Shown in pieces: positions 18,818 through 60,116 of a stretch of DNA of 64,000 nucleotides; within the stretch, counting starts at the first letter, position 1, and every line of letters begins with the position of its first letter. Source of the stretch: Eledone cirrhosa (Eukaryota); NCBI GenBank assembly GCA_964016885.1, contig OZ024745.1, positions 10,044,001 through 10,108,000 on the forward strand. Direction: 5' to 3'. Below the pieces are notes generated by a model. It worked only from the letters and a program-made list of their open reading frames with translations. It had not been told where the DNA came from and ran no database searches. Position numbers and translations under genes: made by a program.

Positions 18818-20274
18818 CTAGCAGCAGTACCCAGCATTGCTTGGGTAGGTAAAATAATATCTGCTTTGATCAAAAGGTATTGATCTTAGCGATTGCTTTT
18901 TGATGACTCATCTATAGCCACACAGGCCATGCTAGGGGAGGGAGGTAATGACCTCTAACACTAAGCCAAATTTCCTCACGCTACTTGATTGGAAACCGAT
19001 GAATTCTCAAACGTGAACGACAAAGCATAAACGAACTAAGGAAAAAATTAGAGATAAGAGGGATCAGATGTTGTTTACTCGAGAGAAGGCTACGTTGGTA
19101 TGGACACGTGATGCGCATGAAAGTCGATAGCTGTATAACAAAGTGCAGGGCAATAAAGATAGACGGTAGCCACGGAATAGGCAGACCCAGAAAAACCTGG
19201 GATGAGCTGATAAACTCCGACCTCACACACTTACACCTCTCCAAGACAATGTCACTGGACCGAGACCTTTGGCGGTACTCAGTAATAGAGAAGACCCGCC
19301 TTACCTAAATACATAGTAAAACCTACTACAATCAGTAGGCATCTCTAACAAAATACACCCCCGTCCCACCCCATCCACACCGCCCCGTTTTATGTAAAGT
19401 TATGTTGGTGCCGCGCCATCCAGGCCAAAACAAATGAGATCGTGTAGGTGTCACGACAAAAAAACACACAGTCCACGCTGTAATGTGGCCGTGTAGGCAA
19501 CACGGTAAAAACCTCCCAGTCCCACACTGTAAATGTGGTTGGTGTTAGGAAGGGCATCCAACTGTAGAAAACCTGCCAGACAGTCCTATGCGAGCAAGAC
19601 AATCACTCTTGCCTCAAGTGGGAATACCCCCGTCCAAACCCATGCAAGCGTGGAACACGGACGTTAAACGTTGATGATGATGATGATGATGATGACAACT
19701 AAAAGCCCAGAGAGATGTCAGTGGCCATCATTTTGCTTTTGACCATCTATAAGATGTGCAATGATAGATTCTATTGTAGTATAAAAGTTGAACCAAATAA
19801 ATCGATTTATGTGTGAGGTGGAGCCGAAGTTTCAAATTTGAACGAAATCGGTTGAAAAATGTGGGAGCTAGAGCCGAAAAGGCGGAAATTTGAGCGAAAA
19901 GGTGGTATTTTCGAATATTTAAGCGGCTGCCACGCTGTTCCTGAACAACAAATACAAAATATAAAGCCATTACAGGATGTGCAATGATAAATTCTATTTT
20001 GCTTTAAAATTAGAATGAAATCGGTGGCAAAATGTGGGAGCTAGATCCAAACATCTTATTTTTCGATACCTAAAAAAAGGTGACCCCCCCCCCCCCCCCC
20101 CCCTATCGATTTTTATCTGCAGAATGACCCCGCAATAAAAAAAACGATACGCTGATATATAGAAAACACTCCCCGATGACTAATCTATGAGCCTGTTAAG
20201 TTTCATGAAAATTGGTCGTAAGATGTAGGCCCCTATAGGTAATACACAGACACACAATTTTATATATATACAGA
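18818..20274 (-). mobile_element. Non-autonomous Helitron carrying a nested RTE-B insertion
   Basis: Minus strand begins A|TCTGTATATATATAAAA and ends with the hairpin ACCCAAGCAATGCTGGGT followed by CTAG|T. This is the canonical TC...CTAG structure in an AT target with no TSD. Confidence 0.75.
19011..19695 (+). mobile_element. 5'-truncated RTE family B copy
   Basis: Near-identical to 6294-6963; (GAT)n tail. Confidence 0.92.
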
Positions 20275-20293
20275 TATACGTACATATACATAT

Positions 20294-23200
20294 GTGTAGT
20301 GCAGTGTAATGTGGTGTAGTGCAGTGTAGTGTTGTATAGTGCAGTGTAATGTGGTGTAGTGTAGTGTTGTATAGTGTAGTGTAATGTGGTGTAGTGTAGT
20401 GTTGTATAGTGTAGTGTAATGTGGTGTAGTGTAGTGTTGTATAGTGTAGTGTAATGTGGTGTAGTGTTGTATAGTGCGGTGTAGTGTAGTGTTGTATAGT
20501 GTAGTGTAATGTGGTGTAGTGTTGTATAGTGCAGTGTAATGTGGTGTAGTGTAGTGTAATGTGGTGTAGTGTTGTATAGTGCAGTGTAATGTGGTGTAGT
20601 GTAGTGTTGTATAGTGCAGTGTAGTGTGGTGTAGTGTAGTGTTGTATAGTGCAGTGTAATGTGGTGTAGTGTAGTGTTGTATAGTGCAGTGTAGTGTGGT
20701 GTAGTGTAGTGTTGTATAGTGTAGTGTGGTGTAGTGTAGTGTTGTATAGTGTAGTGTAATGTGGTGTAGTGTTGTATAGTGCAGTGTAATGTGGTGTAGT
20801 GTAGTGTTGTATAGTGTAGTGTAATGTGGTGTAGTGTAGTGTTGTATAGTGTAGTGTAATGTGGTGTAGTGTTGTATAGTGCAGTGTAATGTGGTGTAGT
20901 GTAGTGTTGTATAGTGTAGTGTAATGTGGTGTAGTGTTGTATAGTGCAGTGTAATGTGGTGTAGTGTAGTGTTGTATAGTGCAGTGTAATGTGGTGTAGT
21001 GTAGTGTTGTATAGTGCAGTGTAATGTGGTGTAGTGTAGTGTTGTATAGTGCAGTGTAATGTGGCGTAGTGTAGTGTTGTATAGTGCAGTGTAATGTGGT
21101 GTAGTGTAGTGTTGTATAGTGTAGTGTTGTATAGTGTAGTGTAATGTGGTGTAGTGTAGTGTGGTGTAGTGTAGTGTAGTGTTGTATAGTGCAGTGTAAT
21201 GTGGCATAGTGTAGTGTTGTATAGTGCAGTGTAATGTGGCGTAGTGTAGTGTTGTATAGTGCAGTGTAATGTGGTGTAGTGTAGTGTTGTATAGTGTAGT
21301 GTAATGTGGTGTAGTGTTGTATAGTGCAGTGTAATGTGGTGTAGTGTAGTGTTGTATAGTGTAGTGTAATGTGGTGTAGTGTAGTGTAATGTGGTGTAGT
21401 GTAATGTAGTGTAGTGTAGTGTTGTATAGTGCAGTGTAATGTGGCGTAGTGTAGTGTTGTATAGTGCAGTGTAATGTGGCGTAGTGTAGTGTTGTATAGT
21501 GCAGTGTAATGTGGTGTAGTGTAGTGTTGTATAGTGCAGTGTAATGTGGTGTAGTGTAGTGTTGTATAGTGCAGTGTAATGTGGTGTAGTGTAGTGTAGT
21601 GTTGTATAGTGCAGTGTAATGTGGTGTAGTGTTGTATAGTGCAGTGTAATGTTGTATAGTGTAGTGTTGTATAGTGTAGTGTAATGTGGTGTAGTGTTGT
21701 ATAGTGCAGTGTAATGTGGTGTAGTGTAGTGTTGTATAGTGTAGTGTAATGTGGTGTAGTGTAGTGTAATGTGGTGTAGTGTAGTGTAGTGTTGTATAGT
21801 GCAGTGTAATGTGGTGTAGTGTAGTGTTGTATAGTGTAGTGTAATGTGGTGTAGTGTAATGTGGTGTAGTGTAGTGTAGTGTTGTATAGTGCAGTGTAAT
21901 GTGGCGTAGTGTAGTGTTGTATAGTGCAGTGTAATGTGGTGTAGTGTAGTATAGTGTAGTGTAATGTGGTGTAGTGTAGTGTAATGTGGTGTAGTGTAGT
22001 GTTGTATAGTGCAGTGTAATGTGGTGTAGTGTAGTGTTGTATAGTGCAGTGTAATGTGGCGTAGTGTAGTGTTGTATAGTGCAGTGTAATGTGGTGTAGT
22101 GTAATGTGGTGTAGTGTAGTGTAGTGTTGTATAGTGCAGTGTAATGTGGCGTAGTGTAGTGTTGTATAGTGCAGTGTAATGTGGCGTAGTGTAGTGTTGT
22201 ATAGTGCAGTGTAATGTGGTGTAGTGTTGTATAGTGCAGTGTAATGTGGTGTAGTGTAGTGTTGTATAGTGCAGTGTAATGTGGTGTAGTGTAGTGTTGT
22301 ATAGTGCAGTGTAATGTGGTGTAGTGTAGTGTTGTATAGTGCAGTGTAATGTGGTGTAGTGTAGTGTTGTATAGTGCAGTGTAATGTAGTGTAGTGTAAT
22401 GTGGTGTAGTGTAGTGTTGTATAGTGCAGTGTAATGTGGTGTAGTGTAGTGTTGTATAGTGCAGTGTAATGTAGTGTAGTGTAATGTGGTGTAGTGTAGT
22501 GTTGTATAGTGCAGTGTAATGTGGTGTAGTGTTGTATAGTGCAGTGTAATGTAATGTAGTGTTGTATAGTGCAGTGTAGTGTGGCGTAGTGTAGTGTTGT
22601 ATAGTGCAGTGTAATGTGGTGTAGTGTAGTGTTGTATAGTGTAGTGTAATGTGGAGTAGAGTAGTGTAGTGTTGTATAGTGAAGTGTAGTGTTGTATAGT
22701 GTAGTGTAATGTGGTGTAGTGTAGTGTTGTATAGTGTAGTGTAATGTGGTGTAGTGTAATGTGGTGTAATGTAGTGTAGTGTTGTATAGTGCAGTGTAAT
22801 GTGGCGTAGTGTAGTGTAGTGTAGTGTAGTGTTGTATAGTGCAGTGTAATGTGGTGTAGTGTAGTGTTGTATAGTGCAGTGTAATGTGGTGTAGTGTAGT
22901 GTAGTGTTGTATAGTGCAGTGTAGTGTTGTATAGTGCAGTGTAATGTGGTGTAGTGTAGTGTTGTATAGTGCAGTGTAATGTGGTGTAGTGTAGTGTTGT
23001 ATAGTGTAGTGTAATGTGGTGCAGTGTAATGTGGTGTAGTGTAGTGTTGTATAGTGCAGTGTAATGTAGTGTAGTGTAATGTGGTGTAGTGTAGTGTTGT
23101 ATAGTGCAGTGTAATGTGGTGTTGTATAGTGCAGTGTAATGTGGTGTAGTGTAGTGTTGTATAGTGCAGTGTAATGTGATGTAGTGTAGTATAGTGTAGT

Positions 23201-26200
23201 GTAATGTGGTGTAGTGTAGTGTTGTATAGTGCAGTGTAATGTGGTGTAGTGTAATGTGGTGTAGTGTTGTATAGTGCAGCGTACTGTGGTGTAGTGTAGT
23301 GTTGTATAGTGCAGTGTAATGTGGTGTAGTGTAGTGTTGTATAGTGCAGTGTGGTGTAGTGTAGTGTTGTATAGTGCAGTGTAATGTGGTGTAGTGTAGT
23401 GTTGTATAGTGCAGTGTAATGTGGTGTAGTGTAGTGTAATGTGGTGTAGTGTAATGTGGTGTAGTGTAGTGTTGTATAGTGTAGTGTAATGTGGTGTAGT
23501 GTAGTGTTGTATAGTGTAGTGTGGTGTAGTGTAATGTGGTGTAGTGTAGTGTAGTGTTGTATAGTGCAGTGTAATGTGGTGTAGTGTAATGTGGTGTAGT
23601 GTAGTGTTGTATAGTGCAGTGTAGTGTAGTGTAGTGTTGTATAGTGCAGTGTAATGTGGCGTAGTGTAGTGTTGTATAGTGCAGTGTAGTGTAGTGTAGT
23701 GTTGTATAGTGCAGTGTAATGTGGTGTAGTGTAGTGTTGTATAGTGTAGTGTAATGTGGTGTAGTGTAGTGTAGTGTTGTATAGTGCAGTGTAATGTGGC
23801 GTACTGTAGTGTAGTGTAGTGTTGTATAGTGCAGTGTAATGTGGTGTAGTGTAGTGTTGTATAGTGCAGTGTAATGTGGTGTAGTGTAGTGTAGTGTTGT
23901 ATAGTGCAGTGTAGTGTTGTATAGTGCAGTGTAATGTGGTGTAGTGTAGTGTTGTATAGTGCAGTGTAATGTGGTGTAGTGTAGTGTTGTATAGTGTAGT
24001 GTAATGTGGTGTAGTGTAGTGTTGTATAGTGCAGTGTAATGTAGTGTAGTGTAATGTGGTGTAGTGTAGTGTTGTATAGTGCAGTGTAATGTGGTGTAGT
24101 GTAGTGTTGTATAGTGCAGTGTAATGTGGTGTAGTGTAGTGTTGTATAGTGCAGTGTAATGTGGTGTAGTGTAGTGTTGTATAGTGTAGTGTAATGTGGT
24201 GTAGTGTAGTGTTGTATAGTGCAGTGTAATGTGGTGTAGTGTAGTGTTGTATAGTGCAGCGTACTGTGGTGTAGTGTAGTGTTGTATAGTGCAGTGTAAT
24301 GTGGTGTAGTGTAGTGTTGTATAGTGCAGTGTAATGTGGTATAGTGTAGTGTTGTATAGTGCAGCGTACTGTGGTGTAGTGTAGTGTTGTATAGTGCAGT
24401 GTAATGTGGTGTAGTGTAGTGTTGTATAGTGCAGTGTGGTGTAGTGTAGTGTTGTATAGTGCAGTGTAATGTGGTGTAGTGTAGTGTTGTATAGTGCAGT
24501 GTAATGTGGTGTAGTGTAGTGTAATGTGGTGTAGTGTTGTATAGTGCAGTGTAATGTGGTGTAGTGTTAGTGTTGTATAGTGTAGTGTAATGTGGTGTAG
24601 TGTAGTGTTGTATAGTGTAGTGTAATGTGGTGTAGTGTAGTGTTGTATAGTGTAGTGTGGTGTAGTGTAATGTGGTGTAGTGTAGTGTTGTATAGTGCAG
24701 TGTAATGTGGTGTAGTGTAGTGTTGTATAGTGCAGTGTAATGTGGCGTAGTGTAGTGTTGTATAGTGCAGTGTAGTGTAGTGTAGTGTTGTATAGTGCAG
24801 TGTAATGTGGTGTAGTGTAGTGTTGTATAGTGTAGTGTAATGTGGTGTAGTGTAGAGTAGTGTTGTATAGTGCAGTGTAATGTGGCGTAGTGTAGTGTAG
24901 TGTAGTGTTGTATAGTGCAGTGTAATGTGGTGTAGTGTAGTGTTGTATAGTGCAGTGTAATGTGGTGTAGTGTAGTGTAGTGTTGTATAGTGCAGTGTAG
25001 TGTTGTATAGTGCAGTGTAATGTGGTGTAGTGTAGTGTTGTATAGTGCAGTGTAATGTGGTGTAGTGTAGTGTTGTATAGTGTAGTGTAATGTGGTGTAG
25101 TGTAGTGTTGTATAGTGCAGTGTAATGTGGTGTAGTGTAGTGTTGTATAGTGCAGTGTAATGTGGTGTAGTGTAGTGTTGTATAGTGCAGTGTAATGTGG
25201 TGTAGTTTAGTGTTGTATAGTGCAGTGTAATGTGGTGTAGTGTAGTGTAATGTGGTGCAGTGTAATGTGGTGTAGTGTAGTGTTGTATAGTGCAGCGTAC
25301 TGTGGTGTAGTGTAGTGTTGTATAGTGCAGTGTAATGTGGTGTAGTGTAGTGTTGTATAGTGCAGTGTAGTGTAGTGTTGTATAGTGCAGTGTAATGTGG
25401 TGTAGTGTAGTGTTGTATAGTGCAGTGTAATGTGGTGTAGTGTAGTGTTGTATAGTGCAGTGTAATGTGGTGTAGTGTAGTGTAATGTGGTGTAGTGTAG
25501 TGTTGTATAGTGTAGTGTAATGTGGTGTAGTGTAGTGTTGTATAGTATAGTGTAATGTGGTGTAGTGTAGTGTTGTATAGTGTAGTGTGGTGTAGTGTAA
25601 TGTGGTGTAGTGTAGTGTAGTGTTGTATAGTGCAGTGTAATGTGGTGTAGTGTAGTGTTGTATAGTGCAGTGTAGTGTAGTGTAGTGTTGTATAGTGCAG
25701 TGTAATGTGGCGTAGTGTAGTGTTGTATAGTGCAGTGTAGTGTAGTGTTGTATAGTGCAGTGTAATGTGGTGTAGTGTAGTGTAGTGTTGTATAGTGCAG
25801 TGTAATGTGGTGTAGTGTAGTGTTGTATAGTGCAGTGTAATGTGGTGTAGTGTAGTGTTGTATAGTGCAGTGTAATGTGGTGTAGTGTAGTGTTGTATAG
25901 TGCAGTGTAATGTGGTGTAGTGTAGTGTTGTATAGTGCAGTGTAATGTGGTGTAGTGTAGTGTTGTATAGTGCAGTGTAATGTGGTGTAGTGTAATGTGG
26001 TGTAGTGTAGTGTCGTATAGTGCAGTGTAATGTGGTGTAGTGTTGTATAGTGCAGTGTAATGTGGCGTAGTGTAGTGTTGTATAGTGCAGTGTAATGTGG
26101 TGTAGCGTAGTGTAGTGTTGTATAGTGCAGTGTAATGTGGTGTAGTGTAGTGTTGTATAGTGCAGTGTAATGTGGTGTAGTGTAATGTGGTGTAGTGTAG

Positions 26201-29200
26201 TGTTGTATAGTGCAGTATAATGTGGTGTAGCGTAGTGTAGTGTTGTATAGTGCAGTGTAATGTGGTGTAGTGTAGTGTTGTATAGTGTAGTGTAATGTAG
26301 TGTAGTGTAATGTGGTGTAGTGTAGTGTTGTATAGTGCAGTGTAATGTGGTGTAGTGTAGTGTAGTGTTGTATAGTGCAGTGTAATGTAGTGTAGTGTAA
26401 TGTGGTGTAGTGTAGTGTTGTATAGTGCAGTGTAATGTGGTGTAGCGTAGTGTAGTGTTGTATAGTGCAGTGTAATGTGGTGTAGTGTAGTGTTGTATAG
26501 TGTAGTGTAATGTAGTGAAGTGTAATGTGGTGTAGTGTAGTGTTGTATAGTGCAGTGTAATGTGGTGTAGTGTAGTGTTGTATAGTGCAGTGTAATGTAG
26601 TGTAGTGTAGTGTTGTATAGTGCAGTGTAATGTGGTGTAGTGTAGTGTTGTATAGTGCAGTGTAATGTGGTGTAGTGTAGTGTTGTATAGTGCAGTGTAA
26701 TGTGGTGTAGTGTAGTGTTGTATAGTGCAGTGTCATGTAGTGTAGTGTAATGTGGTGTAGTGTAGTGTTGTATAGTGCAGTGTAATGTAGTGTAGTGTAG
26801 TGTTGTATAGTGCAGTGTAATGTGGTGTAGTGTAGTGTTGTATAGTGCAGTGTAATGTGGTGTAGTGTAGTGTTGTATAGTGCAGTGTAATGTGGTGTAG
26901 TGTAGTGCAGTGTAATGTGGTGTAGTGTAGTGTTGTATAGTGCAGTGTAATGTGGTGTAGTGTAGTGTTGTATAGTGCAGTGTAATGTGGTGTAGTGTAG
27001 TGTTGTATAGTGCAGTGTAATGTGGTGTAGTGTTGTATAGTGCAGTGTAATGTAGTGTAATGTGGAGTAGTGTAGTGTTGTATAGTGCAGTGTAATGTGG
27101 TGTAGTGTAGTGTTGTATAGTGCAGTGTAATGTGGTGTAGTGTAGTGTTGTATAGTGCAGTGTAATGTGGTGTAGTGTAGTGTTGTATAGTGCAGTGTAA
27201 TGTAGTGTTGTATAGTGCAGTGTAATGTAGTGTAGTGTAATGTGGTGTAGTGTAGTGTTGTATAGTGTAGTGTAATGTGGTGTAGTGTAGTGTTGTATAG
27301 TGTAGTGTAATGTGGTGTAGTGTAGTGTAGTGTTGTATAGTGCAGTGTAATGTGGCGTAGTGTAGTGTTGTATAGTGCAGTGTAATGTGGCGTAGTGTAG
27401 TGTTGTATAGTGCAGTGTAATGTAGTGTAGTGTAGTGTTGTATAGTGCAGTGTAATGTGGTGTAGTGTAGTGTTGTATAGTGCAGTGTAATGTGGTGTAG
27501 TGTAGTGTTGTATAGTGCAGTGTAATGTTGTGTAGTGTAATGTGGTGTAGTGTAGTGTTGTATAGTGCAGTGTAATGTGGTGTAGTGTAGTGTTGTATAG
27601 TGCAGTGTAATGTGGTGTAGTGTAGTGTTGTATAGTGCAGTGTAATGTGGTGTAGTGTAGTGTTGTATAGTGCAGTGTAGTGTTGTATAGTGCAGTGTAA
27701 TGTGGTGTAGTGTAGTGTTGTATAGTGCAGTGTAATGTGGTGTAGTGTTGTATAGTGTAGTGTAATGTGGTGTAGTGTAGTGTTGTATAGTGCAGTGTAA
27801 TGTAGTGTAGTGTAGTGTTGCATAGTGTAGTGTAATGTGGTGTAGTGTAGTGTTGTATAGTGCAGTGTAATGTGGTTTAGTGTAGTGTTGTATAGTGCAG
27901 TGTAATATGGTGTAGTGTAGTGTTGTATAGTGCAGTGTAATGTGGTGTACTGTTGTATAGTGCAGTGTAATGTGGTGTAGTGTAGTGTTGTATAGTGCAG
28001 TGTAGTGTAGTGTTGTATAGTGCAGTGTAATGTGGTGTAGTGTAGTGTTGTATAGTGCAGCTTACTGTGGTGTAGTGTAGTGTTGTATAGTGCAGTGTAA
28101 TGTGGTGTAGTGTAGTGTTGTATAGTGCAGTGTAATGTGGTGTAGTGTAGTGTTGTATAGTGCAGTGTAATGTAGTGTAGTGTAGTGTTGTATAGTGCAG
28201 TGTAATGTGGTGTAGTGTAGTGTTGTATAGTGCAGTGTAATGTGGTGTAGTGTAGTGTTGTATAGTGCAGTGTAATGTGGTGTAGTGTAGTGTTGTATAG
28301 TGCAGTGTAATGTAGTGTAGTGTAGTGTTGTATAGTGCAGTGTAATGTGGTGTAGTGTAGTGTTGTATAGTGCAGTGTAATGTGTTGTAGTGTAGTGTTG
28401 TATAGTGCAGTGTAATGTAGTGTAGTGTAGTATAGTGCAGTGTAATGTGGTGTAGTGTAGTGTTGTATAGTGCAGTGTAATGTGGTGTGGTGTAGTGTTG
28501 TATAGTGCAGTATAATGTGGTATAGTGTAGTGTTGTATAGTGCAGTGTGGTGTAGTGTAGTATAGTGCAGTGTAATGTAGTGTAGTGTTGTATAGTGCAG
28601 TGTAATGTAGTGTAGTGTAGTGTTGTATAGTGCAGTGTAATGTGGTGTAGTGTTGTATAGTGCAGTGTAATGTGGTGTAGTGTAGTGTTGTATAGTGCAG
28701 TATAATGTGGTGTAGTGTAGTGTAGTGTTGTATAGTGCAGTGTGGTGTAGTGTAGTGCTGTATAGTGCAGTGTAATATGGTGTAGTGTAGTGTTGTATAG
28801 TGCAGTGTGGTGTAGTGTAGTGTTGTATAGTGCAGTGTAATGTAGTGTAGTGTTGTATAGTGCAGTGTAGTGTAGTGTAGTGTAGTGTTGTATAGTGCAG
28901 TGTAATGTAGTGTTGTATAGTGCAGTGTAATGTAATGTAGTGTTGTATAGTGCAGTGTAATGTAGTGTAGTGTAATGTTGTATAGTGCAGTGTAATGTAA
29001 TGTAGTGTTGTATAGTGCAGTGTAATGTAATGTAGTGTAGTGTAATGTTGTATAGTGCAGTGTAATGTAATGTAGTGTTGTATAGTGCAGTGTAATGTAA
29101 TGTAGTGTTGTATAGTGCAGTGTAATGTAATGTAGTGTAGTGTAATGTTGTATAGTGCAGTGTAATGTAGTGTTGTATAGTGCAGTGTAATGTAATGTAG

Positions 29201-29533
29201 TGTAGTGTAATGTTGTATAGTGCAGTGTAATGTAATGTAGTGTTGTATAGTGCAGTGTAATGTAATGTAGTGTTGTATAGTGCAGTGTAATGTAATGTAG
29301 TGTTGTATAGTGCAGTGTAATGTAATGCAGTGTAATGTAATGTAGTGTAGTGTAATGTTGTATAGTGCAGTGTAATGTAATGTAGTGTAGTGTAATGTTG
29401 TATAGTGCAGTGTAATGTAATGTAGTGTTGTATAGTGCAGTGTAATGTAATGTAGTGTTGTATAGTGCAGTGTAATGTAATGTAGTGTAGTGTCATGTTG
29501 TATAGTGCAGTGTAATGTAATGTAGTGTAGTGT
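20294..29533. repeat. 9.2-kb (GTAGT)n-derived satellite with a 35-bp higher-order unit
   Basis: Pentamers gtagt-gtagt-gttgt-atagt-gcagt-gtaat-gtggt recur in order. Confidence 0.97.
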
Positions 29534-29714
29534 GGGTCTTCCATCAGTTTTTCTTGGCATAAACTGTGATGGAAAGAAACTGAAGAAGAAAAAGTGAAAT
29601 AATCAGCAGTATGAGATGTATTGGAAAACGGGAGTGAAGTTGTGATTTAGTTTAACACTGTATATTGATGGCAGAGGGTGAGGGTAAGTTACTGATGGTG
29701 TCATATATAACACG

Positions 29715-30050
29715 AGGGAGGAAACTGGTGTGGGTGGGGAGAAAATGGGAGAGGGAGGGAAAGAGAGGAAGGGGTAATGGAATGAGGAAGTGACAGAATA
29801 GTGTGTGGGGGGAGACAGAGATAGAAATAGAGTGGAAGAGAGGGGGAGAAAGAGAGAAAAGTAATAGGGAATTGTAAGAGAGTGAAAGGGGGAAGGAGAG
29901 GGGAGGGGAGCAGAGTGAGGAGAGTTTAGAGAAATATTGTGGAGAGAGGGGGACAGAGAGTGAGAAAAGGGGATGGAGAGAGTGAGAGAGGGTGAAGAGA
30001 GAGAGTGAGGAAGAAAGAGAAAGGAACGGAGAGAGAGTGAGAGAGGCGAG
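29715..30050. repeat. GA-rich low-complexity tract
   Basis: Purine-rich gagagagg runs. Confidence 0.7.
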
Positions 30051-31181: not shown

Positions 31182-33988
31182 AGCTTAGATTAGTTGTAGG
31201 TAGGAGACTACTGACAATCATCTCGGTCTATGCTCCCCAAGCAGGCCTAGGCAAAGATGAGAAAGACTGCTTTTATGAGCAACTTTTGCAAACAACCACA
31301 ATGACAGAGGACGGAGACATCGTTATGCTAGCAGGAGACTTCAATGGTCATGTTGGACAGCTCCAGGATGGTTACACTGGGGTACATGGTGGGCACGGTT
31401 ACGGTTCAAGAAATAAAGAAGGAGTGAGACTTCTTGAATTTTGTGATGCAAGTACATTGACTATTTGCAACACAAACTTCCAGAAACCTGCCAATCACCT
31501 AATAACCTACAAATCTGGTGAGCACATAAGCCAGATTGACTTCCTGCTAGTTAGGCAGCGGGACAGGCAGATAGTGTCTAATACCAAGGCAAACCCTGGG
31601 GAAGAATGTACTCCACAGCATAGGTTAGTTGTTAGTGATATCTCAGTAAGCAAGAGATGGAATGAGACATATAGGAAGGTGTGGAGAAGAAAGGTCTGGA
31701 AGCTAAAAGACCTTTCACTAAAATTCAAATTTAGGAAAGCCCTTCAAGATGTATATGACAAAAAAGAAGACGATTTAGAGACGTATGACATAGATAATAA
31801 CTGGAAGTTCTTACGTGACAACTTGCTGAAGGCTACTGATGAAACCTGTGGCTGGAGCAGAGCTCCAACCAGACAGAGAGTGACCTGGTGGTGGAACAGC
31901 AGTGTAGATAAGGCTATTAGAGACAAAAGACTAGCATGGAAGGCTTGGAATAAGGGTGGGAGTAGGGAAGAATATACAGCCACTAAGAGAGAAGCTAGAC
32001 GTCAGGTGTACTTAGCACGCAGGGAGGCAGAGAGTAGGAGGTTTGCCAATGTTCTGCGACGGGAAGATCAGAGGCGTGCGGTGTTCCACATTGCAAGGCA
32101 GTGTGTCAATGCAAATCAGGATGTTGTTGGTGATAAATGTGTCCGGGATGATGCCGGTGTACTTAGTGTCACGAATGACCAGAAAAAGGAGGCCTGGAAA
32201 TGTCATTATGAGAGACTGATGAATGTGGAGAACGAATGGGAGAGAGAGAAATTACCCTTGGTAGATCCGACAGAGGGACCAGCTATTGAGATTGACGAAT
32301 ATAGGGTCCAAGAGGCGATTAGGGAAATGAAAAATGGTAAGGCGGCCGGACCATCGGGAATAGTTGCTGAGATGCTGAAGGCATCAAGGGACGTAGGCAC
32401 TAAACTGGTTGCACGCATAATCAATCAGGCTATATATGGTGGTGTCATACCCAAAGACTGGTGCAGCAGTATTCTCATAAATTGCTACAAAGGTAAAGGG
32501 GATGCTTTGGAGAGGAGCAATTATAGGGGTATAAAACTGATAGATCAGGTTATGAAAGTGGCAGAAAGGATTTTAGCACAACTAATTAGAGAAAGGGTCA
32601 AACTAGATGAGATGCAGTTTGGTTTTGTGCCTGGGAAGAGTACAACAGATGCCCTCTTCTTGGTGAGACAAATGCAAGAGAGGTTCTTAGAGAAGAATAA
32701 GCCACTATACTTAGTCTTTGTTGACCTAGAGAAGGCCTTTGATAGGGTACCCCGATCTGTCATCTGGTGGTCCCTAAGGAAGCTGGGTGTTGAGGAATGG
32801 CTTGTAAGGACAGTGCAAACTTTGTACAGAGGTACTCTCAGTAAAGTCAGGGTAGGAATGGAGTTTAGTGAGGAATTCCAGATACAAGTAGGAGTACATC
32901 AGGGTTCGGTCCTCAGCCCGCTCTTGTTCATTATAGTCCTCCAAGCCATAACAGAGGAGTTTAAGACTGGCTGTCCATGGGAACTTCTCTATGCTGACGA
33001 TCTGGCTCTTATGGCAGAATCAGTAGAGGAGCTAGAGAATAAATTCCGGCTATGGAAACAGCAGTTGGAAGCAAGAGGACTGAGAGTAAATCTAGCTAAG
33101 ACAAAAGTGTTGATGAGTAGAAAAGAGGACAAAACCCTGATTCCGTCAGGGAAATGGCCATGTTCGATATGCAGAAAAGGAACTGGCATAAATTCTATAA
33201 AATGCACACAATGTAGGTCCTGGGTACACAAGAGATGTAGCGGGATAGCAGGCAAACTAACAGGTAGGGAGAAATATGTATGCAGTAGATGTACAGGGAA
33301 ATTAGACAGTAGAAGTCGCACTGATAGACACATTTTTCAAATGCGAGAGGGCGCTATAGAAGTGGTGGATAGCTTCCGGTACCTAGGAGATCAAATTAGC
33401 ATGGGAGGAGGGTGTTCCGAGGCCATAGTATCTAGAATAAGGACGGGTTGGAAGAAGTTTAGGGAGCTGCTTCCTCTGTTGACGAAGAAGGGTTTCTCCC
33501 TGCGTACGAAAGGCCGGTTGTATGATGCCTGTGTGAGGAGCGCGATGCTGCATGGTAGTGAGACATGGGCAGCTACCGCAGAAGATATGCGACGGCTGGA
33601 GAGAAATGAGGCAAGCATGCTCCGTTGGATGTGCAGTGTAAATGTGCGTGAACGACCCAGCATAAATGTGTTGAGAGAGAAACTGTGTCTGAGAGGGATA
33701 GAATGTAGTGTACGGGAGAGGAGACTGATGTGGTATGGACATGTGATGCGCATGGAGGATGACCGATGGGTGAAGAAGTGCCAGGAAATGCCAGTTGAAG
33801 GAAGACGTGGTAGAGGTAGACCACGAAAAACATGGGCGGAGGTGGTGAGAACAGACCTCAGATCATTGAAGCTCACGGTGGAGATGACGAGGGACCGTGA
33901 CGAGTGGAGAGATGCTGTGCTGAACAAGACCCGTCCCACCCTTGCAAGCAGGGAAAAGCGGACGTAAAATGATGATGATGATGATGAT
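31182..33988 (+). mobile_element. RTE-clade LINE family A, 5'-truncated within the APE domain
   Basis: Uninterrupted ORF with GDFNGHVG and SQIDF (APE) and NYRGIKL, QFGF, VDLEKAFD, QGSVLSPLLF, YADD (RT); (GAT)n tail. Confidence 0.96.
31286..33967 (+). CDS. RTE endonuclease/reverse transcriptase ORF (N-terminally truncated, otherwise intact)
   Basis: 893-aa ORF with YADD and a CxxC...CxxC...HxxC...CxxC PHD-like finger. Confidence 0.9.
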   Translation: MQTTTMTEDGDIVMLAGDFNGHVGQLQDGYTGVHGGHGYGSRNKEGVRLLEFCDASTLTICNTNFQKPANHLITYKSGEHISQIDFLLVRQRDRQIVSNTKANPGEECTPQHRLVVSDISVSKRWNETYRKVWRRKVWKLKDLSLKFKFRKALQDVYDKKEDDLETYDIDNNWKFLRDNLLKATDETCGWSRAPTRQRVTWWWNSSVDKAIRDKRLAWKAWNKGGSREEYTATKREARRQVYLARREAESRRFANVLRREDQRRAVFHIARQCVNANQDVVGDKCVRDDAGVLSVTNDQKKEAWKCHYERLMNVENEWEREKLPLVDPTEGPAIEIDEYRVQEAIREMKNGKAAGPSGIVAEMLKASRDVGTKLVARIINQAIYGGVIPKDWCSSILINCYKGKGDALERSNYRGIKLIDQVMKVAERILAQLIRERVKLDEMQFGFVPGKSTTDALFLVRQMQERFLEKNKPLYLVFVDLEKAFDRVPRSVIWWSLRKLGVEEWLVRTVQTLYRGTLSKVRVGMEFSEEFQIQVGVHQGSVLSPLLFIIVLQAITEEFKTGCPWELLYADDLALMAESVEELENKFRLWKQQLEARGLRVNLAKTKVLMSRKEDKTLIPSGKWPCSICRKGTGINSIKCTQCRSWVHKRCSGIAGKLTGREKYVCSRCTGKLDSRSRTDRHIFQMREGAIEVVDSFRYLGDQISMGGGCSEAIVSRIRTGWKKFRELLPLLTKKGFSLRTKGRLYDACVRSAMLHGSETWAATAEDMRRLERNEASMLRWMCSVNVRERPSINVLREKLCLRGIECSVRERRLMWYGHVMRMEDDRWVKKCQEMPVEGRRGRGRPRKTWAEVVRTDLRSLKLTVEMTRDRDEWRDAVLNKTRPTLASREKRT

Positions 33989-34075
33989 AGTAATAATAAT
34001 AAATTTGAAGACTAAAATCCAAAGAGGGCTCGATAAGGATAAATATATATCAAATATATAAGAACCGTAGAGCAA

Positions 34076-35140
34076 ATATTTATTAAAATAACAGATTAAA
34101 GTTTAAGCAAAGAATCGCTGCTTTCACCCTTAACGGGATCTTCTGAAACTAACAAAGTCAATCTGTGAACGCAGAAGTGAATATTTCAAAAAACGTTGCA
34201 ACCGGAGGAAGACAGGAAGACGATACTTTGGTTCGTGGAAACGTTCCCTGGCAAAGAACGGGAAAAAATGAATATAATACGTCATAATAGGAGCGGTGAA
34301 AAACAATTACATGCAAAGACAGAACTACGTTTATGGTATAAAAGAAGTCGTAGACTAATGTTCTCTTAGGTGGTTCATAGAGACGTTCTCTGGCAATGGA
34401 CGGAAAAAACGATGATAATACGTCATATGTGGAGTGTGGAGAACAATTTGTGTATTTACATGTAGGTATGTGTGTGCGCTTGTTATATACGTATTTATTT
34501 ATTTATTTATTTATTTGTATACACGCACACACACACACACATATTTATATGTGCGTGGTTTTGTATACCTATGGCAAGTGTTTTCGCGTATGCTTGTGTA
34601 TGTACGTATTTGCATGCGTGTATGTATTTATTTAATTTCTATTACCTCTGTATTGTATTTTATTTACTTTATTCTTAACTCTGTAGCGGAGATTCATTCG
34701 GTTTCCTAGTTAGAATTTTAGTCTACAACTTCTGCTATACCATTTACGAGGTTTTGTCTTGCGTGCAATTGTTCTCCACGCTCCACATATGACGTATTAT
34801 CTCCGTTTTTTCCGTTCATTGCCAGAGAACGTCTCTATGAACCACCTAAGAGAACATTAGTCTGCGACTTCTTTTATACCATAAACGTGGTTCTATCTTT
34901 GCGTGTAATTGTTTTTCACCACTCCAATTAATGACGTATTATATTCGTTTTTTCCCGTTCTTTGCCAGGGAACGTTTCCATGAACCAAAGTATCGTCTTC
35001 CTGTCTTCCTCCGGTTGCAACGTTTTCTGAAATATCCACCTCTACGTGTACAGATTGACTTTGTTAGTTTCAGAAGATCCCGTTAAGGGTGAAAGCAGCG
35101 ATTCTTTGCTTAAACTTTAATCTGTTATTTTAATAAATAT
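34076..35140. mobile_element. Foldback element with ~370-bp inverted arms (34076-34448 and 34767-35140), Penelope pLTR-like
   Basis: The arms are reverse complements with scattered mismatches, and each carries a hammerhead-like motif. Confidence 0.85.
35066..35116 (+). ncRNA. Type I hammerhead-like ribozyme with a variant core (mirror copy at 34100-34150, minus strand)
   Basis: AGTTT-CAGAAGA-T-CCC-GTTAA-GGG-T-GAAA-GCA..TGC-TT-AAACT. All three stems form; core position U4 is A. Confidence 0.6.
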
Positions 35141-35194
35141 ATATATATATATATAAATAATATAAGATCAAAAGATGGTTAAAAGAGTTCCATG

Positions 35195-38100
35195 TATTTT
35201 ATTATGCGCATTTCAAAAACAAATATCATCATCATCATCATCATCATTTTATGTCCGCTTTTCCCTGCTTGCTAGGGTGGGACGGGTCTTATTCAGCACA
35301 GCATCTCTCCACATCTCCACCGTGAGCTTCAATGATCTGAGTTCTGTTCTCACCACCTCCACCCATGTTTTTCGTGGTCTACCTCTATCACGTCTTCCTT
35401 CAACTGGCAATTCCTGGCACTTCTTCACCCATCGGTCATCCTCCATGCGCATCACATGTCCATACCACCTCAGTCTCCTCTCCCGTACACTACATTCTAT
35501 CCCTCTCAGACACAGTTTCTCTCTCAACACATTTATGCTGGGTCGTTCACGCACATTTACACTGCACATCCAACGGAGCATGCTTGCCTCATTTCTCTCC
35601 AGCCGTCGCATATCCTCTGCAGTTGCTGCCCATGTCTCACTACCATGCAGCATTGCGTTCCTCACACAAGCATCATACAACCGGCCTTTCATACGCAGGG
35701 AGAAACCCTTCTTCGTCAACAGAGGAAGCAGCTCCCTAAACTTCTTCCAACCCGTCCTTATTCTAGATACTATGGCCTCGGAACACCCTCCTCCTAGGTA
35801 CCGGAAGCTATCCACCACTTCTATAGCGCCCTCTTGCATTTGAAAAATGTGTCTATCAGTGCGACTTCTACTGTCTAATTTCCCTGTACATCTACTGCAT
35901 ACATATTTCTCCCTACCCGTTAGTTTGCCTGCTATCCCGCTACATCTCTTGTGTACCCAGGACCTACATTGTGTGCATTTTATAGAATTTATGCCAGTTC
36001 CTTTTCTGCATATCGAACATGGCCATTTCCCTGACGGAATCAGGGTTTTGTCCTCTTTTCTACTCATCAACACTTTTGTCTTAGCTAGATTCACTCTCAG
36101 TCCTCTTGCTTCCAACTGCTGTTTCCATAGCCAGAATTTATTCTCTAGCTCCTCTACTGATTCTGCTATAAGAACCAGATCGTCAGCATAGAGAAGTTCC
36201 CATGGACAGCCAGTCTTAAACTCCTCTGTTATGGCTTGGAGGACTATAATGAACAAGAGCGGGCTGAGGACCGAACCCTGATGTACTCCTACTTGTATCT
36301 GGAATTCCTCACTAAACTCCATTCCTACCCTGACTTTACTGAGAGTACCTCTGTACAAAGTTTGCACTGTCCTCACAAGCCATTCCTCAACACCTAGCTT
36401 CCCTAGGGACCACCAGATGACAGATCGGGGTACCCTATCAAAGGCCTTCTCTAGGTCAACAAAGGCTAAGTATAGTGGCTTATTCTTCTCTAAGAACCTC
36501 TCTTGCAATTGTCTCACCAAGAAGAGGGCATCTGTTGTACTCTTCCCAGGCACAAAACCAAACTGTATCTCATCTAGTTTGACCCTTTCTCTAATTAGTT
36601 GTGCTAAAATCCTTTCTGCCACTTTCATAACCTGATCCATCAGTTTTATACCCCTATAATTGCTCCTCTCCAAAGCATCCCCTTTACCTTTGTAGCAATT
36701 TATGAGAATACTGCTGCACCAGTCTTTGGGTATGACACCACCATATATAGCCTGATTGATGATGCGTGCAACCAGTTTAGTGCCTACGTCCCCTGATGCC
36801 TTCAGCATCTCAGCAACTATTCCCGATGGTCCGGCAGCCTTACCATTTTTCATTTCCCTAATCGCCTCTTGGACCCTATATTTGTCAATCTCAATAGCTG
36901 GTCCCTCTGTCGGATCTACCAAGGGTAATTTCTCTCTCTCCCATTCGTTCTCCACATTCATCAGTCTCTCATAATGACATTTCCAGGCCTCCTTTTTCTG
37001 ATCATTCGTGACACTAAGTACACCGGCATCTTCCCGGACACATTTATCTCCAACAACATCCTGATCTGCATTGACACACTGCCTTGCAATGTGGAACACC
37101 GCACGCCTCTGATCTTCCCGTTGCAGAACATTGGCAAACCTCCTACTCTCTGCCTCCCTGCGTGCTAAGTACACCTGACGTCTAGCTTCTCTCTTAGTGG
37201 CTGTATATTCTTCCCTACTCCCACCCTTTTTCCAAGCCTTCCATGCTAGTCTTTTGTCTCTAATAGCCTTATCTACTGTGCTGTTCCACCACCAGGTCAC
37301 TCTCTGTCTGGTTGGAGCTCTGCTCTAGCCACAGGTTCCATTAGTAGCCTGCAGCAAGTTGTCACGTAAGAAATTCCAGTTATTATCTATGTCATACGTC
37401 TCTAAATCGTCTTCTTTTTCGTCATATACATCTTGAAGGGCTTTCCTAAATTTGTATTTTAGTGAAAGGTCTTTTAGCTTCCAGACCTTTCTTCTCCACA
37501 CCTTCCTATATGTCTCATTCCATCTCTTGCTTACTGAGATATCACTCACAACTAACCTATGCTGTGGGGTACATTCTTCCCCAGGGTATGCCTTGGTATT
37601 AGACACTATCTGCCTGTCCCGCTGCCTAACTAGCAAGAAGTCAATCTGGCTTATGTGCTCACCAGATTTGTAGGTTGTTAGGTGATTGGCAGGTTTCTGG
37701 AAGTTTGTGTTGCAAATAGTCAATGTACCCGCATCACAAAATTCAAGAAGTCTCACCACTCCTTCATTTCTTGAACCGTAACCGTGCCCACCATGTACCC
37801 CAGTGTAACCATCCTGGAGCTGTCCAACATGACCATTGAAGTCTCCTGCTAGCATAACGATGTCTCCGTCCTCTGTCATTGCGGTTGTTTGCAAAAGTTG
37901 CTCATAAAAGCAGTCTTTCTCATCTTTGCCTAAGCCTGCTTGGGGAGCATAAACCGAGATGATTGTCAGTAGTCTCCTACCTACAACTAATCTAAGCTTA
38001 ATTATTCGATTACTAACTCGAACTACCTCTATTGTCTTATTGATCCATTTCTCAGCCAGGAAAATGCCTACTCCCCCTAGCCCATCATCCTTACCTACCC

Positions 38101-38376
38101 AGAATAGCTTATAGCTAAGACGCTTGCCTACGACTAGTCTCGCAGAGGCACCTCTCCATCTCACCTCCACCTGCCTTCTCTCCAGCATCTCCGCTATTTC
38201 AGCAGATCTACCTCCGAGAGTGCCAACATTAAGTGTTGCAACTCTGAGATGCGACGTCTTCATATTTTGTTGTTGCTATTTGTTGCTGTGCTGATAAGCG
38301 TTTTGGCATTGATACACTGGTTGAATGCCCTTCCTAACATCATGGGATGATATTTGCGTTCTCATCAGATAAAATA
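35195..38376 (-). ncRNA. Minimal type I hammerhead ribozyme interrupted in stem II by an RTE (halves 38347-38376 and 35195-35229)
   Basis: Rejoined sequence: TATTTTAT-CTGATGA-GAACGCAAATATCAT/ATGATATTTGTTTTT-GAAA-TGCGCA-TA-ATAAAATA. Confidence 0.8.
35230..38346 (-). mobile_element. Near full-length RTE LINE family A (APE-RT), inactivated
   Basis: ORF starts MKTSHLRVATLNVGTL at 38263. A TGG>TAG stop at ~37325 and small in-frame deletions relative to the 31286 ORF. The 5' UTR has a GTTAGGAAGGGCAT motif. Confidence 0.95.
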
Positions 38377-38612
38377 GGAAGACATGATATGAAGCTTAAA
38401 AAACACTTGCAAGCGCAGTGAAGTGTTAAATCAACAAGTGGTAAATATCAATGATGATATTTGTTTTTGAAATGCGCATAATAAAATACATGGAACTCTT
38501 TTAACCATCTTTTGATCTTATATTATTTATACTCCAGTCCTATAAACTGTTGAGGGCTACTTATTCGATATTTGCATTGCTTTATTGTGCTACAATAAAA
38601 CTCACCTCCTAC

Positions 38613-38668
<56 letters not shown>

Positions 38669-39761: not shown

Positions 39762-39992
39762 CGACACAGATTCTTGGTCAGTACTGTTATCTGCCAACTT
39801 CCTCGATATATCAGTGTAGGCATGTTGAAGTTTATCATGTTCCCGGTGAATTTTGTCCAGTTCCCACTGAGTATGACTGAGGCTGCGATGGGTTTCTTCT
39901 AATTCTTTCCGTAACACTTTCACTTGCCTCTCATAATCCACAAGGTTCTCTTCCGATGTCATTATTTCACACTGCCATTTTTCAAGGTCACT
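39762..39992 (-). CDS. CIT: Coding exon (SDLEKWQCEIMTSEENLVDYERQVKVLRKELEETHRSLSHTQWELDKIHREHDKLQHAYTDISRKLADNSTDQESVS)
   Basis: ttttgtgtag acceptor, gtaagt donor, 231 nt, phase 0-0, coiled-coil character. Confidence 0.8.
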
Positions 39993-40230
39993 CTACACAA
40001 AATAAAACAATAATAATGGTTTCTAATTTAGGCACAAGACCAACAATTTTGGGGAAGGGAAAAATCAATTAAATCAACCCCAGTGTGTTACTGGTACTAT
40101 ATTGACCCCGTAAAGATGAAAGGTAAAGCTAACCCCAGCGGGATTTGGACGCAAGACGGAGGTGATGATGATAGATGTATATACACTCAAATATATATAT
40201 ACCATTATCATGATATATACGTGTGTGTAT

Positions 40231-50789: not shown

Positions 50790-51132
50790 ATACGATATTA
50801 ACAAATGGAAACTATATTTATAAAACCATCTTTCAAGGACACCAAGTTAAATTATGGTGTGCTTTCATCAGATAAAATATAATATAGATCAGTTTTATAA
50901 ATAAATATTGACATACCCTTAAAGAATGCAACCATTACTGTTGGAAGCTCCCGGAGCTTCCAACAGTAATGGTTGCATTCTTTAAGGGTATGTCAATATT
51001 TATTTATAAAACTGATCTATATTATATTTTATCTGATGAAAGCACACCATAATTTAACTTGGTGTCCTTGAAAGATGTATAATGAAATAAATATGGTTTT
51101 ATAAATATAGTTTCCATTTGTTAATATCGTAT
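50790..51132. mobile_element. Palindromic Penelope pLTR-like element (125-bp perfect arms around 50952, plus outer arms)
   Basis: 50827-50951 is the reverse complement of 50953-51077; 50790-50829 pairs with ~51093-51132. Confidence 0.88.
51025..51089 (+). ncRNA. Minimal type I hammerhead ribozyme motif (stem III degenerate)
   Basis: TATTTTAT-CTGATGA-AAGCACACCA..TGGTGTCCTT-GAAA-GATGTA-TA-ATGAAATA. Confidence 0.7.
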
Positions 51133-58988: not shown

Positions 58989-59590
58989 GTGGTTACACAA
59001 CATTTAGTTCATCATACCGAGAACAATTGTTTCACCTTAGCGGATCCTCAGCTCTTAATGGACATGGTTATACGGAACAGGAAGGACAACCATACGAACG
59101 CGCATGCGCAGAAAGCAGTCACTTCACACAGGCAATACTAAAATGCGTGCGAGAGGTGTAAGGGAGATAACTGCGAAAGTCCGAAAAGTTTTAAGTTGAT
59201 AAAAAAATTATGATGTAATAATTCAATCCGGAGCTTTGTAGTTATGCAAGAGGTGTTTCGAGAAGTGTGGACGTGTGAAGAATTCATTTCTCGTTTTTAG
59301 GCAATCACTATTGCATAATCTCTTTAGAATATTTATATGTTCATCAATACATAGTCCACACGACGGATTTCCCCTTGCGTATGGCTTGGACTTAGTGATG
59401 GCTTTCCATTGAATGGAGTAGTCTATACTTGAGTCCTTGAGGGACCATACGTGGCTCGCGAGTTTCGTGGCTGAACGTCTGTCTGGGTACCTAAAGGTCG
59501 ACTGGTGGTTCAGGAAACGTTCCTTAAATCGGCCCTCCGCCATGCCCACATAGGATTTGACCTCCTGTGGTTGGTTTGGTCGGTTGGATA
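58985..59590 (-). mobile_element. 5'-truncated Penelope-like element (Neptune-type GIY-YIG endonuclease C-terminus plus pLTR) inserted in (TA)n
   Basis: KSYVGMAEGRFKERFLNHQSTFR...ATKLASHVWSLK...IQWKAI...PYARGNPSCGLCIDEH...RNEF is typical of PLE GIY-YIG domains. A hammerhead lies downstream of the stop. Confidence 0.85.
59019..59054 (-). ncRNA. Minimal type I hammerhead ribozyme in the PLE pLTR
   Basis: GAG-CTGAGGA-T-CC-GCTAA-GG-T-GAAA-CAATTG-TT-CTC, with a palindromic stem III. Confidence 0.72.
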
Positions 59591-60116
59591 TGTATATATA
59601 TAGTAGTTTAATAATAATTTTAAAAATAAAGAATTAGAGAAAACCTTCCCTAACTTCTTTTAGAGTTAAAAACAAATATTAAAATATTACATTGTGATGT
59701 GTTACAGAGAATATTTCCAAAGGAAGACATTAAACCAAAGTCCCACCAAATTGTTAAGCAGATGGAATTATAGAACCACATAAAATATAAGCAGGAAAGT
59801 TTGAATAAAACCAGTTAAAAAAAAGATTTGTGTTGCTTATAGTAAACACCAAATGCACTCATATAGGGTTCAAAGTTTAAAAGCAAAAGCAATACTAAAG
59901 GAGGATCTAAGCATCATGCTAGCAAGAGGAAAATTGATTGGAATAAAGAAAGCAGTGAGAAGTGTAGAGTTAAAGACGAGTAAATATTAGTGGAGATGTG
60001 CTACCATTGTAGACTAGGGTGAGTGAATAGATGCAGCTAGAATCTTAACTAATATTATTGCTCCATGTCTTCCAGAGCAGCCACATGACCTTAACGACAT
60101 GGCAGCATGCACTCAC

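Follow-up and report, generated by a model that had tools for sequence, protein, structure and literature searches.

The window analyzed here, a stretch of 64 kb, carries on its minus strand a hammerhead-shaped motif that has been opened by a 3.1-kb RTE retrotransposon. The reading that we favor, with a probability of about 0.88, is that the RTE is nested in the hammerhead of a truncated, intronic copy of a Penelope-like element (PLE), that it duplicated 6 bp upon insertion, that it landed there through a preference for ATG followed by ATAT, and that the motif is predicted to be inactive. The split copy is nested and probably dead transposon debris, likely not a working split ribozyme. Against this reading stands the fact that a 3.1-kb loop II is geometrically possible and that all hammerhead nucleotides have been kept.

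Structure of the split hammerhead and its insert

An earlier note on this DNA had described a hammerhead ribozyme split by an RTE in its stem-II loop. The split itself was borne out, while its exact site proved to be the border between the loop and the 3′ strand of stem II. Excision of the RTE together with one copy of ATGATG restores a hammerhead that is identical at 71/71 nt to a natural copy (L052), with which the 5′ side agrees through position 38338 and the 3′ side from position 35232 (Table 1). The RTE boundary previously placed at 38346 is 9 bp off, and a cut at that position drops 6 nt, including the CCAU loop (65 versus 71 nt). Every hammerhead nucleotide has been retained because ATGATG was duplicated as a 6-bp target site duplication (TSD); the resemblance noted before between the tail of the RTE and its target is supported, with (ATG)n as the tail. 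Both stem I strands, CTGATGA, GAAA, the palindrome TGCGCA (35210 to 35205), and the AUA triplet ending at 35203 were all recovered on the minus strand as first described. Stem II, given earlier as 15 bp with one mismatch, has 16 positions in its natural form, i.e., 15 pairs (two of them G-U) plus one C/U mismatch, and carries a CCAU loop.

Table 1. Features of the split locus and its surroundings (positions within the window)
Feature	Position	Strand	Basis or remark
Nearest upstream host exon (coiled-coil protein)	39762..39992	-	AG/GT ends
Inverted, 5′-truncated second copy of the element end, with tail of ~85 bp, then (TA)n	38451..38615	+	81 bp identical to 35232-35152
Penelope-like element pLTR/3′ UTR, 5′ truncated, preceding the hammerhead	38377..38436	-	Locus comparison
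Hammerhead stem I, 5′ strand TATTTTAT	38369..38376	-	Pairs conserved across families
Hammerhead core C3-A9, CTGATGA	38362..38368	-	Sequence
Stem II 5′ strand (38361-38346) and CCAU loop (38345-38342)	38342..38361	-	Match to L052
TSD, upstream copy ATGATG	38338..38343	-	Six natural bases on either side of the insert
RTE-clade LINE, 3,105 bp	35233..38337	-	ORF pieces, Pfam domains, TSD, (ATG)n tail
TSD, downstream copy ATGATG, which merges into the RTE tail	35227..35232	-	L052 comparison
Stem II 3′ strand, complete	35215..35230	-	L052 comparison
GAAA (35214-35211), palindromic stem/loop III AUGCGCAU, AUA triplet	35203..35214	-	Predicted cut 35203/35202
Hammerhead stem I, 3′ strand ATAAAATA	35195..35202	-	L052 comparison
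Rest of the Penelope-like element 3′ end, ending in (TA)n	35152..35194	-	Same end in many copies

The insert is a LINE that we take to belong to the RTE clade from its ORF layout and motifs: a single ORF with APE followed by RT, a short tandem-repeat tail, and a TSD. A premature stop at 37325 to 37327 breaks the ORF into two parts, one of 316 aa with APE and one of 691 aa with RT, and its Pfam matches were Exo_endo_phos_2 (E = 1.3e-4), RVT_1 (E = 2.2e-29), and PHD. About 120 nt of 5′ UTR, present in 4 of 14 other copies, are missing, and there are three 18-nt deletions, one relative to all three (3/3) copies having the longer 5′ UTR and two relative to the neighboring RTE. The stop (position 37326) is absent from nearly all aligned contigs and reads. 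The RTE is a 5′-truncated, broken copy.

Two further observations concern these RTEs. The 5′ truncations of copies elsewhere cluster, with 5 of 14 copies beginning at TGGTG and two at TG, just before TTAGGAAGGGCAT (L058 to L062, L066, and L067), and the window copy does likewise; the cause could be search bias, microhomology to (TA)n, or a 5′ UTR processing site. In addition, a second RTE of the same subfamily, together with a common 450-bp downstream repeat, forms a 95%-identical inverted pair with the first (31182-34448 versus 34767-37998, 320 bp apart), which in intron RNA would pair as a duplex of 3.2 kb, leaving the hammerhead 3′ half within a bubble. Both elements have 5 of 14 minority variants in common and are therefore no recent duplicate.

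Intact copies and the Penelope-like parent element

Uninterrupted copies, whose absence the earlier note would have held against its interpretation, are plentiful. A genome search with the right flank returned 87 matches from the 40 scored of 213 candidates, and the 5′ half was continuous with the 3′ half in 29/29 other loci fetched (28 distinct places). The two halves do belong together, since an exact 38-mer spanning the insertion point joins them 935 times genome-wide, against 0 for the reversed control; the exact 3′ half occurs 11,980 times. In the 364,727 bases fetched, a hammerhead descriptor matched 84 times (54 distinct, the loci being partly overlapping), compared with no match in any of 5 shuffles.

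By its sequence pattern, the motif is type I hammerhead-shaped. In an alignment of 12 variants, which were hand-picked to span AT-rich families, are related in sequence, and also served to name the structure, 95.8% of the cells of stems I and II were paired and 9/18 pairs showed two-sided, compensatory change; none of 500 shuffles scored as high, and slid controls reached 31 to 58%. The core CUGANGA...GAAA...UH is present and invariant among the 12 except at position 7. Stem III is short, and its self-complementary loop III had 91.7% of palindrome cells paired across the same variants. The motif is nevertheless not the "textbook" hammerhead it had been called: pair 10.1-11.1 is G-U here instead of G-C (8 A-U and 4 G-U in the 12-variant alignment), and the Rfam hammerhead models miss intact copies too, with no match in the window nor in four loci with intact copies (0/80 rows hammerhead). 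Rfam being blind to intact copies, the Infernal scoring that had been proposed as a check is uninformative for this family. A non-LTR retrozyme, described in 10.64898/2026.07.22.740005 as short hammerhead units arranged head to tail, was considered and set aside, the locus having a single hammerhead and an inverted half.

The fetched loci contain at least five further hammerhead-shaped families (L014, L019, L070, L072, L073, L076, L077, and others). Loop III is palindromic in most of these, several also have the C/pyrimidine mismatch of stem II, and Rfam saw none of them where it was run. One second family is found in the window itself, on both strands of a 343-bp palindrome (50790-51132) that is probably another inverted Penelope-like end; it is complete at 51025-51089 (+) and shortened on the minus strand. 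In this genome, a single Penelope-like family accounts for ~12,000 hammerhead-shaped motifs, and these, like several other families, are missed by the Rfam models.

Longer copies of the hammerhead-bearing element have an RT-endonuclease ORF upstream. A protein search for this parent ORF scored 150 of 46,730 candidates, and 11 ORF loci were examined. In 9 of the 11, a hammerhead of this family follows the ORF on the strand of the ORF, ~1.0 to 1.3 kb past it in seven; two of those nine (L052 and L070) have a hammerhead on both sides, spaced 3,194 and 3,940 bp apart around the ORF, and of the remaining two loci, one has it upstream only and one has none. The parent ORFs measure 713 to 821 aa. The 821-aa ORF of L069 contains DKT, CxCx5C, CxxC, and CxH, with no CCHH, and the same was read by eye in L070, L073, and L074; where Hydra elements have RWK, these ORFs have RWT or RWI. 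Pfam and PDB scans of the PLE ORFs gave no relevant match, and the atlas places the parent ORF beside GIY-YIG/RT-type clusters (GIY-YIG, RVT_1, HTH_animal) at 0.95 to 0.98. A Neptune parent, suggested by motifs, was dropped on comparison with the description of the Hydra clade in PMC8557442 (Craig et al. 2021), where Hydra-clade PLEs insert into (TA)n and carry hammerheads. The hammerhead is not a host element but the terminal motif of a Penelope-like retrotransposon that is abundant in this genome and whose ORF has Hydra-clade motifs. The supplement of PMC8557442 has an octopus family, Hydra-1_Obim, of 2,507 bp, and its consensus and hammerhead files may already include the present element family.

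The window holds only the end of this element, made up of ~100 bp preceding the split, the 3′ half with its terminus, and the inverted copy, with (TA)n on both sides. Together with the hammerheads flanking the ORF in L052 and L070, the inverted, 5′-truncated copy and one-sided tail are Penelope traits, and the window copy, as its layout indicates, is of the truncated, inverted form described for Penelope-like elements. Judging from the literature and the covariation, the hammerhead of the parent element would dimerize via its palindromic stem III and process tandem transcripts. As separate observations, L069 and L070 (G000 C1714 and C1) have long open ORFs (821 and 775 aa) with a variant hammerhead, which suggests a recently active Penelope-like subfamily, and the minus strand at 59226-59633 encodes an endonuclease C terminus resembling the same Penelope-like type (YVG...CxxC...H) but of another family, with no Pfam match.

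Recurrent insertion at a single base

Searches with exact patterns showed that the window insertion has counterparts. Where at least four ATG repeats precede the 3′ half, 9/9 loci are independent insertions, differing in length and family, whose 3′ junction is at the same base. They comprise three RTE fragments (3.1 kb in the window, net 908 and 861 bp in the others) and six SINE-like elements with RTE-type tails (net 211 to 409 bp in the five measured; L091 is the sixth). The 5′ junctions differ among the nine, a full ATGATG duplication being present in four (the window, L087, L092, and L093); the other split loci lose target bases, three of them with short visible microhomology. These patterns overturned the view of a unique event, which rested on BLAST-type searches that had found no second RTE-hammerhead junction among 40 scored matches each. 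Transduction of an RTE-hammerhead unit was also rejected, as the 5′ junction of the window copy is unique and none of the eight other inserts is the same as it. Where exactly (ATG)3 precedes the 3′ half, as at ten loci, RTE insertion was ruled out: seven matches are intact motifs with an extra ATG and three are truncated or inverted element ends.

RTE-type tails elsewhere point to the kind of target involved. In 32 distinct tails, drawn from loci fetched for other reasons, the tail is followed by ATAT in 19 and by AT in 25, compared with an ATAT background of 1.2 to 2.7%. Exact RTE ends of the counted tail motif number 18,168, for which uniform insertion expects 0.036 events at the 11,980 hammerhead sites and the ATAT preference alone 0.8 to 1.8, the chance estimate deriving from the composition of the window and the loci rather than from a count across the genome, and the upper bound of the enrichment reaching P = 0.047; 3 events were observed, with a closely similar tail pattern. 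As a control, another ATAT of the element that no ATG precedes, of uncounted copy number, had 1 tail junction versus 9 at the hammerhead. Most simply, an ordinary target preference met with a target that is abundant; tail-target matching of RTE retroposons has been published (PMC6007223).

Nine independent insertions at one base, an excess of ~80-fold over the uniform expectation for the counted motif, and the imbalance with the control site might alternatively mean that RTEs and SINEs target the PLE hammerhead specifically, beyond the short ATGATGATAT site motif, e.g., through a DNA hairpin at stem II. We consider this very unlikely: only 3 of the ~18,000 counted RTE ends and 9 of the 11,980 sites are involved, the ATAT preference by itself predicts 0.8 to 1.8 events, and the tail finds ATGATG homology at the hammerhead site but not at the control site.

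Under the preferred reading of ordinary target preference, events at the locus would have followed in three steps. A PLE with Hydra motifs would have entered (TA)n as a short 5′-truncated end plus inverted copy, a structure that is seen in the window and a mechanism that is taken from the literature. The RTE would have been added later by target-primed reverse transcription, with duplication of ATGATG and, likely, base pairing between its (ATG)n RNA tail and the nicked target; the duplication is directly visible, the priming presumed. Finally, the RTE would have gained the stop and deletions that it now displays. The RTE and SINE insertions are by this order dated later than the Penelope copies they hit, and the split loci provide a clean readout of RTE target choice. 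The nine splits are also a natural series of loop-II inserts (~0.2 to 3.1 kb) at one base, usable for testing the tolerance of the PLE hammerhead.

Predicted folding in the host intron and relation to known systems

The earlier assignment of this strand as the sense strand of a host gene was upheld by minus-strand coiled-coil exons, bounded by AG/GT, that flank the locus (at ~60.1, 49.2, 43.5, 42.4, 39.9, 5.4, and 4.7 kb). Judged by these exons, the locus is placed within the intron that follows exon 39762..39992, in sense orientation. A 4,770-nt contig of run X6, whose run type is not on record, covers 39762-39994 only, with 0 differences, and a search for homologues of the host gene found none, returning generic coiled-coil matches only. 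The gene lies at 4623-60239 (-) of the window and has seven or more small coiled-coil exons, along with a 34-kb intron filled with repeats. Some 10 kb of the window (20000-30000) have an extreme GC skew (0.74 to 0.86) and are probably a satellite or simple repeat array.

The inverted copy next to the hammerhead, absent from the earlier note, bears on what the motif might do in intron RNA. Its first 81 bp (38451-38531) are identical, inverted, to 35232-35152 and hence constitute an arm antisense to the hammerhead 3′ half. Read-through intron RNA copies this arm first, and the 3′ half is therefore predicted to be sequestered. The predicted pairing of arm and 3′ half amounts to -119 kcal/mol versus ~-13 to -17 for the hammerhead, and in the minimum free energy (MFE) structure of a 3.5-kb transcript the arm pairs with the 3′ half. 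For a reconstructed empty allele, the modeled mean pairing probability of stems I and II was 0.00 with the arm and 0.86 to 0.87 without it; in the filled allele, stems I and II were still missing from the predicted MFE structure when the arm was omitted. These folding models ignore kinetics and proteins. No second hammerhead of the same family that could act as dimer partner lies on the same strand within the 64-kb window, and no informative empty-allele joint was found among the matches listed from four sequencing runs, which were dominated by repeat copies.

The earlier note had offered two functional ideas, neither of which gained support. One was that the ribozyme still folds around the 3-kb insert and processes the RTE RNA. 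In the form considered here, stem II would close over the RTE and intron RNA would be cut 30 nt past the RTE tail. No core or stem base has indeed been lost or altered relative to natural copies, the host intron carries the motif in sense orientation, and a discontinuous hammerhead with 150 to 1500 nt in helix I is known from Clec2 (PMC6155905). We nonetheless regard this as very improbable. The antisense arm is predicted to take the 3′ half in read-through RNA, the stems are missing from the MFE even without it, an RNA begun inside the RTE would lack the 5′ half, the window has no dimer partner on that strand, and in vitro the PLE hammerheads of metazoans did not cleave as monomers and cleaved only at a low level as dimers (PMC4209133).

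The second idea, that the insertion knocked out a hammerhead active and important in the host pre-mRNA, can draw on the sense orientation within the intron, on the folding of stems I and II by the intact motif when the arm is left out, and on the domesticated intronic hammerheads of amniotes (PMC6155905). Yet the motif is a young, family-identical transposon end with ~12,000 copies and a lone monomer with a 2-bp stem III, and with the arm the empty allele is predicted not to form the hammerhead stems; we judge this reading to be extremely improbable. We also give little credence to a broader version in which (ATG)n LINEs and SINEs repeatedly open loop II, no core base being removed, and some of the nine split copies, among them the 3.1-kb one of the window, still cleave host RNA directly past the insert. 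Were this so, long-range ribozymes would arise in introns repeatedly by this route. Our preferred reading of nested, probably dead debris, in which the antisense arm would sequester the 3′ half, leaves the significance of the locus, as things stand, modest.

The individual parts of this arrangement, i.e., terminal PLE hammerheads, nested LINE insertion, and tail-guided targeting, are already known. Within the incomplete coverage of the titles and abstracts searched, there was no LINE-split PLE hammerhead, no recurrent split, and no cephalopod hammerheads beyond PMC8557442. Like the PLE pLTR hammerheads of PMC4209133 (Cervera and de la Pena 2014), those described here are of type I with a long helix II and a small palindromic helix III suited to dimers, and they occur as thousands of dispersed single copies from truncated elements, as close opposite-strand pairs, and as tandem pairs ~3 kb apart around an RT ORF. 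They differ in the longer stem II (16 positions), the 8-bp stem I, G-U or A-U instead of G-C at 10.1-11.1, a C/pyrimidine mismatch conserved at the fourth position of stem II in the 12 variants, and, for the window copy, the interruption by a LINE.

With the Hydra clade as described in PMC8557442, the element shares the C-terminal endonuclease, DKT, the CxCx5C linker, CxxC, CxH, (TA)n targets, the hammerhead, inverted 5′-truncated copies, and one-sided tails, whereas it has RW(T/I) in place of RWK and a unit of 3.2 to 3.9 kb versus "generally <3 kb." Hydra-1_Obim is listed there with "no pLTR," in contrast, at the level of these descriptions, to the tandem hammerhead-bearing ends seen here. 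The insertions resemble the tail guidance of RTE LINEs and SINEs (PMC6007223) in that the tail repeat matches the start of the target duplication and that SINEs with an RTE 3′ end use the same sites; here, however, the tail is (ATG)n, the target is ATG and then ATAT, and the TSD is 6 bp, its length being ambiguous within the tail, versus the reported 7 to 15 bp. The Clec2 hammerhead (PMC6155905) is likewise in two pieces with a long insert between them in a host transcript, but it is of type III, opened in helix I by 150 to 1500 nt, and found in several mammals, whereas the present one is of type I, opened in helix II by a 3.1-kb LINE, and a single copy. Cleavage by a split copy would make it a discontinuous hammerhead of a second kind, through which nested transposons could cut introns.
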